Source of the DNA: Escherichia coli
Lineage (GTDB): Bacteria; Pseudomonadota; Gammaproteobacteria; Enterobacterales; Enterobacteriaceae
Assembly: GCF_003334355.1 (NCBI RefSeq)
Contig: NZ_QOWP01000001.1
Direction: 5' to 3' (one strand)
Length of the DNA stretch: 64,000 bases
Shown here in pieces: positions 1 through 6,000 of the stretch (its first letter is position 1; each line of letters begins with the position of its first letter). Position numbers: made by a program.

Positions 1-3000
1 AAAACGCTGATCCCGGAACTGGTCGAAGCGCTGAAAAAATGGGGACGCGAAGATATCTGCGTGGTCGCGGGTGGCGTCATTCCGCCGCAGGATTACGCCT
101 TCCTGCAAGAGCGCGGCGTGGCGGCGATTTATGGTCCAGGTACACCTATGCTCGACAGTGTGCGCGACGTACTGAATCTGATAAGCCAGCATCATGATTA
201 ATGAAGCCACGCTGGCAGAAAGTATTCGCCGCTTACGTCAGGGTGAGCGTGCCACACTCGCCCAGGCCATGACGCTGGTGGAAAGCCGTCACCCGCGTCA
301 TCAGGCACTAAGTACGCAGCTGCTTGATGCCATTATGCCGTACTGCGGTAACACCCTGCGACTGGGCGTTACCGGCACCCCCGGCGCGGGGAAAAGTACC
401 TTTCTTGAGGCCTTTGGCATGTTGTTGATTCGAGAGGGATTAAAGGTCGCGGTTATTGCGGTCGATCCCAGCAGCCCGGTCACTGGCGGTAGCATTCTCG
501 GGGATAAAACCCGCATGAATGACCTGGCGCGTGCCGAAGCGGCGTTTATTCGCCCGGTACCATCCTCCGGTCATCTGGGCGGTGCCAGTCAGCGAGCGCG
601 GGAATTAATGCTGTTATGCGAAGCAGCGGGTTATGACGTAGTGATTGTCGAAACGGTTGGCGTCGGGCAGTCGGAAACAGAAGTCGCCCGCATGGTGGAC
701 TGTTTTATCTCGTTGCAAATTGCCGGTGGCGGCGATGATCTGCAGGGCATTAAAAAAGGGCTGATGGAAGTGGCTGATCTGATCGTTATCAACAAAGACG
801 ATGGCGATAACCATACCAATGTCGCCATTGCCCGGCATATGTACGAGAGTGCCCTGCATATTCTGCGACGTAAATACGACGAATGGCAGCCACGGGTTCT
901 GACTTGTAGCGCACTGGAAAAACGTGGAATCGATGAGATCTGGCACGCCATCATCGACTTCAAAACCGCGCTAACTGCCAGTGGTCGTTTACAACAAGTG
1001 CGGCAACAACAATCGGTGGAATGGCTGCGTAAGCAGACCGAAGAAGAAGTACTGAATCACCTGTTCGCGAATGAAGATTTCGATCGCTATTACCGCCAGA
1101 CGCTTTTAGCGGTCAAAAACAATACGCTCTCACCGCGCACCGGCCTGCGGCAGCTCAGTGAATTTATCCAGACGCAATATTTTGATTAAAGGAATTTTTA
1201 TGTCTTATCAGTATGTTAACGTTGTCACTATCAACAAAGTGGCGGTCATTGAGTTTAACTATGGCCGAAAACTTAATGCCTTAAGTAAAGTCTTTATTGA
1301 TGATCTTATGCAGGCGTTAAGCGATCTCAACCGGCCGGAAATTCGCTGTATCATTTTGCGCGCACCGAGTGGATCCAAAGTCTTCTCCGCAGGTCACGAT
1401 ATTCACGAACTGCCGTCTGGCGGTCGCGATCCGCTCTCCTATGATGATCCATTGCGTCAAATCACCCGCATGATCCAAAAATTCCCGAAACCGATCATTT
1501 CGATGGTGGAAGGTAGTGTTTGGGGTGGCGCATTTGAAATGATCATGAGTTCCGATCTGATCATCGCCGCCAGTACCTCAACCTTCTCAATGACGCCTGT
1601 AAACCTCGGCGTCCCGTATAACCTGGTCGGCATTCACAACCTGACCCGCGACGCGGGCTTCCACATTGTCAAAGAGCTGATTTTTACCGCTTCGCCAATC
1701 ACCGCCCAGCGCGCGCTGGCTGTCGGCATCCTCAACCATGTTGTGGAAGTGGAAGAACTGGAAGATTTCACCTTACAAATGGCGCACCACATCTCTGAGA
1801 AAGCGCCGTTAGCCATTGCCGTTATCAAAGAAGAGCTGCGTGTACTGGGCGAAGCACACACCATGAACTCCGATGAATTTGAACGTATTCAGGGGATGCG
1901 CCGCGCGGTGTATGACAGCGAAGATTACCAGGAAGGGATGAACGCTTTCCTCGAAAAACGTAAACCTAATTTCGTTGGTCATTAATCCCTGCGAACGAAG
2001 GAGTAAAAATGGAAACTCAGTGGACAAGGATGACCGCCGATGAAGCGGCAGAAATTATCCAGCATAACGACATGGTGGCATTTAGCGGCTTTACCCCAGC
2101 GGGTTCGCCGAAAGCCCTACCCACCGCGATTGCCCGCAGAGCTAACGAACAGCATGAGGCCAAAAAGCCGTATCAAATTCGCCTGCTGACGGGGGCGTCA
2201 ATCAGCGCCGCCGCTGACGATGTACTTTCTGACGCCGATGCTGTTTCCTGGCGTGCGCCATATCAAACATCGTCCGGTTTACGTAAAAAGATCAATCAGG
2301 GCGCGGTGAGTTTCGTTGACCTGCATTTGAGCGAAGTGGCGCAAATGGTCAATTACGGTTTCTTCGGCGACATTGATGTTGCCGTCATTGAAGCATCGGC
2401 ACTGGCACCAGATGGTCGAGTCTGGTTAACCAGCGGGATCGGTAATGCGCCGACATGGCTGCTGCGGGCGAAGAAAGTGATCATTGAACTCAATCACTAT
2501 CACGATCCGCGCGTTGCAGAACTGGCGGATATTGTGATTCCTGGCGCGCCACCGCGGCGCAATAGCGTGTCGATCTTCCATGCAATGGATCGCGTCGGTA
2601 CCCGCTATGTGCAAATCGATCCGAAAAAGATTGTCGCCGTCGTGGAAACCAACTTGCCTGACGCCGGTAATATGCTGGATAAGCAAAATCCCATGTGCCA
2701 GCAGATTGCCGATAACGTGGTCACGTTCTTATTGCAGGAAATGGCGCATGGGCGTATTCCGCCGGAATTTCTGCCGCTGCAAAGTGGCGTGGGCAATATC
2801 AATAATGCGGTAATGGCGCGTCTGGGGGAAAACCCGGAAATTCCTCCGTTTATGATGTATTCGGAAGTGCTACAGGAATCGGTGGTGCATTTACTGGAAA
2901 CCGGCAAAATCAGCGGGGCCAGCGCCTCCAGCCTGACAATCTCGGCCGATTCCCTGCGCAAGATTTACGACAATATGGATTACTTTGCCAGCCGCATTGT

Positions 3001-6000
3001 GTTGCGTCCGCAGGAGATTTCCAATAACCCGGAAATCATCCGTCGTCTGGGCGTCATCGCTCTGAACGTCGGCCTGGAGTTTGATATTTACGGGCATGCC
3101 AACTCAACACACGTAGCCGGGGTCGATCTGATGAACGGCATCGGCGGCAGCGGTGATTTTGAACGCAACGCGTATCTGTCGATCTTTATGGCCCCGTCGA
3201 TTGCTAAAGAAGGCAAGATCTCAACCGTCGTGCCAATGTGCAGCCATGTTGATCACAGCGAACACAGCGTCAAAGTGATCATCACCGAACAAGGGATCGC
3301 CGATCTGCGCGGTCTTTCCCCGCTTCAACGCGCCCGCACTATCATTGATAATTGTGCACATCCTATGTATCGGGATTATCTGCATCGCTATCTGGAAAAT
3401 GCGCCTGGCGGACATATTCACCACGATCTTAGCCACGTCTTCGACTTACACCGTAATTTAATTGCAACCGGCTCGATGCTGGGTTAATGACTCGTCCCGT
3501 CACGATCTTCAGCAATATGCTGAAGCATCGTGGCGGTATAACGATGATTTCTGATTGAATAAAGATATTCCTGCATATACATCGGCCTGTGCGGTGCATC
3601 AAAATATTTCAGCGTTGCCGGATTCACCAGTCGCCAGGCAAAATGCGGGATCACCGTCAGAAAATGTCCGCGCTCCACGGCGCTGATTTTGGCCATAAAA
3701 CTGTAGGGACGATAAATAATGGTTGGATTGATCCCACAAGGTCGCATATTCGCATCAATCATTGCTTCGAAGTTGGCCCGGTTCTGAAAGCGCATTTGTA
3801 GCCAGGGCAGCTCCTGAAGCAGCTCTTGCTCTTGTCGCTCTTCATAACGGCGAGAAACGAGAAAGCCTAATCGCAGCGGTGGTAGTTCACTGATAGTCAG
3901 GTTTTCCAGTTCCTGAACTCGTGCAGATACATGCTGTGGGGAGATAATAAAATCTAACTGGCGGTCAAAAAGATTATCGATAACGCCATTTTCGCTGAAC
4001 TCAACTGGCTGGGCGGTCACGCCTTCATACTTATCTCCGAGACTAATCAACTGATCGAAAATAATTGTCGGATAAGTATTATCTATGCCAATCACAATTT
4101 CTCGTGAACGACGCCCTGAGTTATGGATTTCATTATCAATCGCAGAAAGCCGTTGATAAACCGGGAACAGTTTTTGATACAGTTCCTGTCCGGCTTTATT
4201 GAGGCTGATATTATTATCTTTGCGGGTAAATAGCGTATAGCCAATTTGTTCTTCCAGCGCGGCAATGCTTTTACCAAATGGCGAAGCCGTCATATGGATT
4301 TTTTCTGCCGCCCGGGCAATATTATTGGTTTGCGCTAATAAAATGAAATTGCGCATCTTTTTCGAAATAAAAATGTCCATCCCCCTCCCCCGCATCCTTG
4401 TCCGCTTAACCGTTTCAGTCAGCCTATCCTTGATGAAACCGCGAGCAAAGATAGGTGATTACGTCATGGTTTTACAGAAAATTACAGAAAAAGGAGGCAA
4501 TATCGGGTAAAGGCATTAGCCCGACGAATACGTCGGGCTACAAATATTATTGTGCTGCAGGTGTTTTAGCGGGTTGTTGATCCACAGGTTCTAACTGGAA
4601 GACCACATCGACCTGATCATCAAACTGAATAGCGGCCTGCTCGTAAGTTTCCTGGGCGGACACCGGCGCGGCATCGGCTTTCATCATCCGCACCATTGGG
4701 CTGGGCTGATAGTTGGAAACATGGTAGCGCACGCTATATACCGGCCCCAGTTTACGATGAAAGCCGTTCGCCAGTTCCTGCGCCTGATGAATCGCGTTAT
4801 CAATCGCTGCCTTACGCGCTTTGTCTTTATAGGCATCCGGCTGCGCCACGCCCAGCGACACAGAACGAATTTCGTTAAGACCCGCCTTCAGCGCGCCATC
4901 CAGCAAGGAATTCAGTTTGTCTAACTGACGGAGCGTGACTTCCACCGTTCTCACAGCGCGGTAGCCTTTAAGGATACTTTTACCATCCTGATAATCATAA
5001 TCTGGCTGGGTGCGTAAGTTCGCTGAGCTGATATCTTTTTTCGCGATCTGATTGAGTTCAAGGAAGGAAATGTATTGTGCGACGCGCTCATCTGCCTGTT
5101 TCTTGGCAGTAGCGGCATCCTTCGCGGCCACGTTAACTTCAATCGCAAGAGTGGCAATGTCTGGCACCGCATCCACGCTTGCCGTACCGGAGGTGACAAT
5201 ATGCGGTCCATCCGGCAATTCGTTAGCCTGCGCTGCCATCCCGCTAATACCCATTAATGCCGCCAGGGCGATAACTTTGAACTTCACGTTAGTCTCTCCG
5301 TGTTAATTGACTTGCCCAAAATTCAGGACCTCTGGAGGCAAGCTTAGCGCCTCTGTTTTATTTTTCCATCAGATAGCGCCTAACTGAACAAGGCTTGTGC
5401 ATGAGCAATACCGTCTCTCGCCAGCTGCAAGGCAATAAACCACATAACACATCCCACAACCAGATTGATAATGCGCTGTGCTTTTGCCGTGCGCAGACGC
5501 GGTGCCAGCCAGGCTGCGAGAAGAGCCAGACCAAAGAACCACAGGAAAGAGGCGCTAATTGTCCCGAGTGCAAACCAGCGTTTTGGTTCCACATCAAGTT
5601 GCCCGCCAAGGCTGCCCAGTACAACAAAAGTATCCAGGTAAACATGCGGATTCAGCCAGGTCACTGCCAACATGGTGGCGATAATTTTCCATCTGCCTTG
5701 CTTCATGACTTCGGCGCTGGCTAACTCAATATTACTGCTCATTGCTGTTTTAAAAGCGCCAAAACCATACCACAGCAAGAAGGCTACGCCGCCCCAGGTG
5801 ACCAGCGCCAGCAACCACGGCGACTGCATCAATAACGCGCTGCCACCAAAAATCCCGGCGCAAATCAGGACCAAATCGCTGATAGCACAAAGTAAGGCAA
5901 TCATAATGTGGTACTGACGACGTATGCCCTGATTCATCACAAAAGCATTTTGTGGACCGAGCGGTAGGATCATAGCCGCCCCAAGTGCAAGACCTTGAAA

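Follow-up and report, generated by a model that had tools for sequence, protein, structure and literature searches.

The distal part of the 'sleeping beauty mutase' operon scpA-argK-scpB-scpC and the convergent srsR gene in an Escherichia coli contig

The beginning of a 64,000-nucleotide (nt) stretch of Escherichia coli DNA (RefSeq assembly GCF_003334355.1, contig NZ_QOWP01000001.1; this whole stretch is called the window hereafter) raises the question of whether it carries an intact set of genes for converting succinate to propionate, how these genes are joined to one another and what each of their products would contribute. An original prediction made from the sequence had placed a methylmalonyl-CoA mutase operon at positions 1 to 3487, with the window opening inside the mutase gene, and our analysis found all the parts of that operon where they had been located. 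We read the region, with a probability of about 0.96, as the operon scpA(sbm)-argK-scpB-scpC of E. coli, known as that of the 'sleeping beauty mutase', of which the window has the distal part, with the LysR gene srsR (ygfI) placed tail-to-tail behind it. As far as it can be seen in the window the locus is intact, ordinary and already fully described.

On the plus strand, positions 1..3487 hold four reading frames that all run in the same direction, and a fifth gene, on the minus strand, is convergent with them. The first frame, which is open from base 1, is the 3' end of scpA (sbm), the gene of the adenosylcobalamin-dependent methylmalonyl-CoA mutase (1..201). Only its last 66 codons lie within the window. 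Upstream of position 1 is the 5' part of the gene, which codes for the TIM-barrel substrate domain and the His-containing cobalamin-binding motif, and argP is likewise outside the window; in near-identical genomes the full-length gene has 2145 nt, and in the RefSeq annotation of strain MLI023K1 and of K-12 it ends at the same base. It is followed by argK (ygfD, meaB; 194..1189), encoding a MeaB-type G3E P-loop GTPase of 331 amino acids, by scpB (ygfG; 1200..1985), encoding a biotin-independent methylmalonyl-CoA decarboxylase of the crotonase superfamily with 261 amino acids, and by scpC (ygfH; 2009..3487), encoding a class I CoA-transferase of 492 amino acids that is assigned as propionyl-CoA:succinate CoA-transferase. 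The convergent gene srsR (ygfI, dhfA) occupies 3484..4380 on the minus strand and encodes a LysR-type transcription factor of 298 amino acids, read from the ATG at 4380. RefSeq features under the matching stretch are scpA, meaB, scpB, scpC, srsR and yggE. The reading frames just described are genuine genes and not open reading frames (ORFs) due to chance, as none of them has an internal stop, they passed curated family cut-offs and the comparison with strain E30 given below shows far more synonymous than non-synonymous differences.

Family membership was established independently of the annotation by comparing the bit scores of NCBIfam hidden Markov models with their curated cut-offs. The 66-amino acid tail of ScpA scored 88 bits with TIGR00640, the mutase C-terminal B12-binding domain (cut-off 57.45), and aligned with positions 654-718 of the 721 in the equivalog NF006944. 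ArgK passed both MeaB equivalogs, with 494.4 bits for NF006958 (cut-off 329) and 455.5 bits for TIGR00750 (cut-off 240.75), and it matched E. coli PDB entry 2P67 over its full length (residues 1-331). This protein also aligned with the MeaB of M. extorquens (8DPB, E 1e-89) and with human MMAA (E 1e-77), and carries the P-loop GTPGAGKS at residue 61, NKDD at residue 200 and a switch III motif, DDLQGIK, which is aligned to DELQGIK of MeaB. ScpB reached 487.2 bits with the methylmalonyl-CoA decarboxylase model NF008506 (cut-off 257; aligned 1-261 of 261), matched E. coli PDB entries 1EF8 (E 1.4e-172) and 6N92 (E 1e-172) over its 261 residues, and has H66, G110 and Y140, which we take to be the active-site residues of the 1EF8 structure. 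ScpC scored 754.5 bits with the YgfH subfamily model TIGR03458 (cut-off 658.7) and aligned end to end with PDB entry 2NVV and with Acetobacter aceti AarC (4EUD); its E286, in YSEVLQ, is aligned with residue 294 of AarC, in YSEVIQ, presumably the nucleophile of that enzyme, and the GIGGSGDF motif is conserved. SrsR (YgfI) gave 635.2 bits with the SrsR equivalog NF047842 (cut-off 425). The homology searches thus placed every ORF in the family that had been named for it, and none in the unrelated families that would have refuted the prediction.

Two of the start codons admitted an alternative. A longer scpB beginning at the GTG at 1158, present in a mechanical list of ORFs, was set aside because the ATG at 1200 agrees with RefSeq, with the 261 positions of the equivalog profile and with the 261 residues of the PDB chains. 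For srsR, an in-frame ATG at 4395 would add five codons and give a protein of 303 amino acids; the profile fits the ATG at 4380, the longer form being a less likely alternative.

Megablast of positions 1..4600 found a match in all the 5426 complete E. coli genomes searched, the best matches being one base off in 4600. The alignment with K-12 MG1655 was gapless, with window position 1 corresponding to MG1655 position 3,062,794 and eight mismatches over 4380 nt. All eight fall in 800 nt of scpC (2039..2838), and the other ~3.6 kb are identical. The ArgK, ScpB and SrsR proteins and the C-terminal tail of ScpA are the same in the window and in K-12, and ScpC has D11 and E277 in the window where K-12 has N11 and V277. 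This cluster of mismatches looks like a small recombination patch or like substitutions of the K-12 lineage in the reference enzyme. Acidic residues at ScpC positions 11 (D) and 277 (E or D) are also present in other E. coli alleles and in the PDB homologue 2NVV.

More distant alleles indicate how the genes have been maintained. Comparison with the 98.2%-identical allele of strain E30 revealed 79 synonymous and 3 non-synonymous codon differences over the five reading frames, and this ratio shows that the scp genes are under strong purifying selection where lineages have kept them. With respect to O157:H7 there were 26 synonymous and 5 non-synonymous differences, three of the latter (one of them nonsense) lying in srsR, which is a pseudogene there.

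The junctions between the genes are not all of one kind. The original prediction had described the operon as having overlapping stop and start codons; the genes scpA and argK do overlap, by 8 nt on the plus strand (194..201, ATGATTAA), but the two codons have no base in common, since the argK ATG lies at 194-196 and the scpA TAA at 199-201, the stop codon beginning 2 nt beyond the start codon, and the other two junctions are gaps. An 8-nt overlap is likewise annotated by RefSeq at this junction, both in K-12 and in genomes near-identical to the window. Between argK and scpB there is a 10-nt gap (AGGAATTTTT), with the Shine-Dalgarno sequence AAGGA in that spacer region, and between scpB and scpC a 23-nt gap that holds AAGGAG ahead of scpC. 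No convincing Shine-Dalgarno sequence was seen upstream of the argK start. Because argK has no good Shine-Dalgarno sequence, whereas scpB and scpC have AAGGA and AAGGAG, respectively, the translation of the chaperone gene argK is probably coupled, through the 8-nt overlap, to that of its client mutase. At the distal end of the operon, scpC and the convergent srsR share the palindromic TTAA at 3484..3487 that had been predicted, and both stop codons were found in it (scpC TAA at 3485-3487; srsR TAA as the complement of 3484-3486), giving a convergent overlap of 4 nt. The sequences of all four junctions are identical in K-12, O157:H7 and MLI023K1, and E30 has a single substitution, in the scpB-scpC spacer.

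Expression signals were searched for as well. No RNA family was detected in 1..4600 when the whole window was scanned with Rfam, so that the visible stretch of the operon has no riboswitch and, in particular, none for cobalamin. A consensus scan of 1..4700 yielded 8 sites resembling terminators and 5 resembling promoters, where shuffled sequences led one to expect 5.8 of each. The counts are therefore close to those of the shuffles, and they give no support to internal promoters or to a defined scpC terminator.

Regarding the function of the products, the four-gene operon has been described as carrying out the cobalamin-dependent decarboxylation of succinate to propionate, in which Sbm interconverts succinyl-CoA and methylmalonyl-CoA, YgfG converts methylmalonyl-CoA into propionyl-CoA and YgfH is a propionyl-CoA:succinate CoA-transferase (PMC3850637). 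The ORFs were identified here by their sequence, and the chemistry is that reported in the literature for the characterised K-12 proteins, which are identical or near-identical to the products of these ORFs. In the proposed cycle, ScpC would take the CoA of propionyl-CoA and pass it to succinate, so that succinyl-CoA is formed and propionate set free; ScpA with adenosylcobalamin would convert succinyl-CoA to methylmalonyl-CoA; and ScpB, with its crotonase fold and without biotin, would decarboxylate methylmalonyl-CoA to propionyl-CoA, which would go back to ScpC. The net result would be the conversion of succinate to propionate and CO2 in a CoA-conserving cycle with ScpC at both its entry and its exit. 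ArgK, as a GTPase of the MeaB/MMAA type, would bind the mutase, and would use GTP hydrolysis to gate the loading of adenosylcobalamin and help to remove damaged cofactor, as described for that family (PMC10481361), while catalysing no chemical step of the route.

Three enzymes and one chaperone, ArgK, make up the route. To describe it as a four-step succinate-to-propionate route is therefore admissible if the arrows are counted, but the four genes do not stand for one step each, ArgK being a chaperone. The dependence on exogenous B12 that had been claimed agrees with the literature, according to which E. coli has no B12 synthesis of its own and product formation required at least 0.2 uM added cyanocobalamin (PMC3850637); the route would run only with imported B12, as E. 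coli makes no cobalamin de novo. Practical use has already been made of the operon, which has been activated with added B12 to obtain propionyl-CoA-derived products such as propionate, 1-propanol and poly(3-hydroxybutyrate-co-3-hydroxyvalerate) (PHBV). Since biochemistry, structural work and metabolic engineering have all dealt with this textbook locus of E. coli, it has little weight as a discovery; the check presented here anchors the window on MG1655, shows that its source is an E. coli other than K-12 with an intact operon, and corrects the overlap geometry and the role of ArgK.

Several points weigh against the reading of this locus as an ordinary and functional sleeping beauty mutase operon, and they concern both the substrates of ScpC and the use that the cell makes of the pathway. 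The first of them is that ScpC is above the cut-offs of two differently named models, TIGR03458 and also NF053853, 'succinyl-CoA:acetate CoA-transferase ScpC' (601.8 bits, cut-off 500), and homology does not fix its preferred acyl partner in vivo. Taken together with the fact that its nearest solved homologues were deposited, one as an acetyl-CoA hydrolase/transferase and the other as the succinyl-CoA:acetate transferase AarC, this could mean that ScpC is physiologically a succinyl-CoA:acetate CoA-transferase or an acetyl-CoA hydrolase and not the propionyl-CoA:succinate transferase that closes the cycle. We consider this unlikely. The top-scoring family above cut-off is the YgfH subfamily; RefSeq, the K-12 annotation and PMC3850637, which cites Haller 2000 in this regard, all assign propionyl-CoA:succinate transfer; and the presence in the same operon of a decarboxylase that produces propionyl-CoA fits that assignment. 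The substrate pair propionyl-CoA and succinate is accordingly assigned to ScpC on the published K-12 enzymology (PMC3850637).

The other points come from the distribution of the operon in the population. At least 80% of the 4600-nt query was covered in 4276 of the 5426 complete genomes, and the remaining 1150 (21%) were below that value. The low-coverage genomes that were sampled share their right breakpoint, at window position 3334, and the left one lies ~930-1020 nt into scpA. The resulting deletion of ~4.26 kb removes argK and scpB entirely, together with the remainder of scpA and with scpC except its last 154 nt, and the remnants of scpA and scpC are annotated as pseudogenes. It appears to go back to one old event. 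Another deletion, independent and IS1A-associated, is found in strain MB51 (2657..4163 in the MB51 locus) and runs from ~576 nt into scpA through most of srsR, to window position ~4217. In addition, four genomes are the closest to the window, at one base off in 4600 (MLI023K1, MLI023K2, PSS-12 and PRO_A-1412-6M-A_ESBL), and in MLI023K1, the one of the four that was examined, the change is at window base 1928 and produces the nonsense mutation Y243* in scpB (codon 1926..1928), with a RefSeq ScpB of 242 amino acids. The scpB of the window does not have this mutation and keeps its full 261 codons. Since most of the operon is missing from ~21% of the genomes and scpB carries a nonsense codon among the closest relatives, the pathway is dispensable and has been repeatedly lost, in line with its 'sleeping' reputation. 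Finally, the operon has been called hardly expressed, and what the pathway does physiologically in wild E. coli has been described as ambiguous (PMC3850637). Its weak expression applies to laboratory conditions.

It could be argued from these losses, from the separate deletion of MB51, from the Y243* seen among the four closest genomes and from the scant expression that the operon is a cryptic remnant heading for loss, without current function in this strain, whose ORFs are intact only because decay has not yet reached them. We find this improbable, as no ORF of the window is damaged or has lost its catalytic motifs, and the excess of synonymous over non-synonymous differences with respect to E30 shows long-term purifying selection where the operon is kept; moreover, Froese 2009, by its title as cited in PMC3901258, reports that sbm is expressed. 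The last alternative, that ArgK is a protein kinase or ATPase of lysine-arginine-ornithine transport unrelated to the mutase, draws on old names only (2P67 was deposited as 'LAO/AO transport system kinase', the short name of TIGR00750 is 'lao' and PMC3850637 speaks of a 'putative kinase') and is rejected as almost certainly wrong on the family and motif evidence, given the two MeaB equivalogs, the similarity to MeaB and MMAA with a conserved switch III, the 8-nt overlap of its gene with the mutase gene and the physical interaction between Sbm and YgfD reported by Froese 2009, as cited in PMC3901258. The reading of the locus as the sleeping beauty mutase operon is consequently maintained, and nothing in the sequence contradicts it or departs from the known system.

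The neighbour srsR deserves separate consideration, since the original prediction had called it the convergent regulator ygfI. It is indeed a LysR-type regulator and it is convergent with the operon. The gene product has been renamed SrsR, a regulator of the stationary-phase stress response whose targets predicted by genomic systematic evolution of ligands by exponential enrichment (gSELEX) include fuc, paa, bluR and genes of the CPS-53 prophage (PMC9181523). A second, provisional name is DhfA, given to it as an activator of dhaKLM (PMC9068703). The names of the scp genes are absent from the SrsR regulon paper, and they do not figure in the examined passages of the DhfA paper. Because these two regulon studies, the second as far as those passages go, do not list the scp genes as targets, ygfI should not be taken as the regulator of the scp operon. 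The srsR gene has internal stops, which make it a pseudogene, in some strains (W193* in O157:H7 F6667, and also in strain R4), and certain lineages have thus lost it in events separate from the losses of the scp genes.

The overlap with scpC has its own consequences for transcription. The 4 nt shared by the two coding sequences leave no intergenic room for a terminator, and therefore each transcript must end inside the other gene and the pair must be transcriptionally overlapping. The scpC-ygfI pair has in fact been listed, from RNA-seq coverage, among the 165 convergent excludons of MG1655 (PMC12288877). It resembles the other convergent excludons in its overlap, and any mutually exclusive expression or RNase III processing of the pair would be hypothetical, the evidence consisting of the overlap, its conservation and the RNA-seq listing. 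That it is a working excludon, in which srsR transcription would run antisense into scpC and the reverse, seems unlikely to us. If it were true, the excludon would help to keep the mutase operon 'asleep' or would tie its expression inversely to the SrsR regulon, and a link could then exist between the losses that several lineages have independently suffered, of srsR through nonsense alleles and of the scp genes; even so, the interest of this possibility would be modest.

Two structures of the DNA in this area were noted. Inside srsR, ~185 nt beyond the scpC stop, there is a short GC-rich hairpin at 3668..3683 with T-rich tails on both strands (GCGCTCCACGGCGC), which is a candidate for an embedded two-way terminator, noted here and not claimed, terminator-like sites being no commoner in this region than in the shuffled sequences. 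In the srsR-yggE intergenic region (4381..4546), a perfect 9-bp stem, AGCCCGACG-AATA-CGTCGGGCT, was found at ~4519..4540, just past the yggE stop; it looks like an ordinary yggE terminator and is absent from the list of the consensus scan.

Elsewhere in the window, a tRNA-Phe gene (pheV, anticodon GAA) lies at 47584..47658 on the plus strand, and after it a complete type II secretion 'beta' cluster extends over ~47800..64000 on the minus strand, with yghD/gspM, gspL through gspC, gspS2, pppA and sslE. In K-12 MG1655 part of the corresponding cluster is deleted internally, and what is left is yghD, a shortened yghE, yghF, yghG, pppA and yghJ, so the window does not come from K-12. The best identity here was 98.7%, whereas the scp region had a single mismatch in 4600 nt, and this segment is thus the more variable of the two. 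The only non-tRNA matches of the window to RNA families, both at the Rfam gathering level, were the small RNA ES036 (CssrF) at 7244..7286 on the plus strand (47.3 bits) and naRNA4 (CssrE) at 35683..35753 on the minus strand (60.9 bits, just over the cut-off of 59.5).

Comparison with known systems places the locus first of all beside that of K-12. In MG1655, scpA-argK-scpB-scpC (b2917-b2920) and srsR/ygfI (b2921) are located at 3,060,850-3,067,173 with the same genes, order and strands, and likewise show the 8-nt scpA/argK overlap, the spacers of 10 and 23 nt and the 4-nt convergent overlap at TTAA.

Outside E. coli, the mutases of M. extorquens and humans run mainly from methylmalonyl-CoA to succinyl-CoA, and the direction proposed for the E. 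coli mutase, from succinyl-CoA to methylmalonyl-CoA, is the opposite one. ArgK is a member of the G3E GTPase family that also includes M. extorquens MeaB and human MMAA, it has the P-loop, NKxD and switch III motifs, and by analogy it is presumed to share their mechanism of GTP-gated loading and repair of the cofactor (PMC10481361). The client mutases differ, Sbm of E. coli being reported as a homodimer (PMC3901258) and the methylmalonyl-CoA mutase (MCM) that is the client of MeaB described as a heterodimer (PMC10481361). As for the CoA-transferase, ScpC and Acetobacter aceti AarC (PDB 4EU3/4EUD) are members of the same class I fold family and align over their full length (E 2e-130), the glutamate of YSEV(L/I)Q and the GIGGSGDF motif being conserved in both; their assigned acyl partners are different, propionyl-CoA and succinate for ScpC and succinyl-CoA and acetate for AarC. 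Finally, in the succinate-to-propionate fermentation of Veillonella and Propionigenium, the conversion of methylmalonyl-CoA into propionyl-CoA plus CO2 is carried out by biotin-dependent, sodium-pumping methylmalonyl-CoA decarboxylases. ScpB has the same overall reaction, but it is a soluble protein with a crotonase fold, without biotin or ion pumping, and because it matches models of the enoyl-CoA hydratase family and the structure 1EF8, it is an analogue and not a homologue of the sodium-pumping enzymes.

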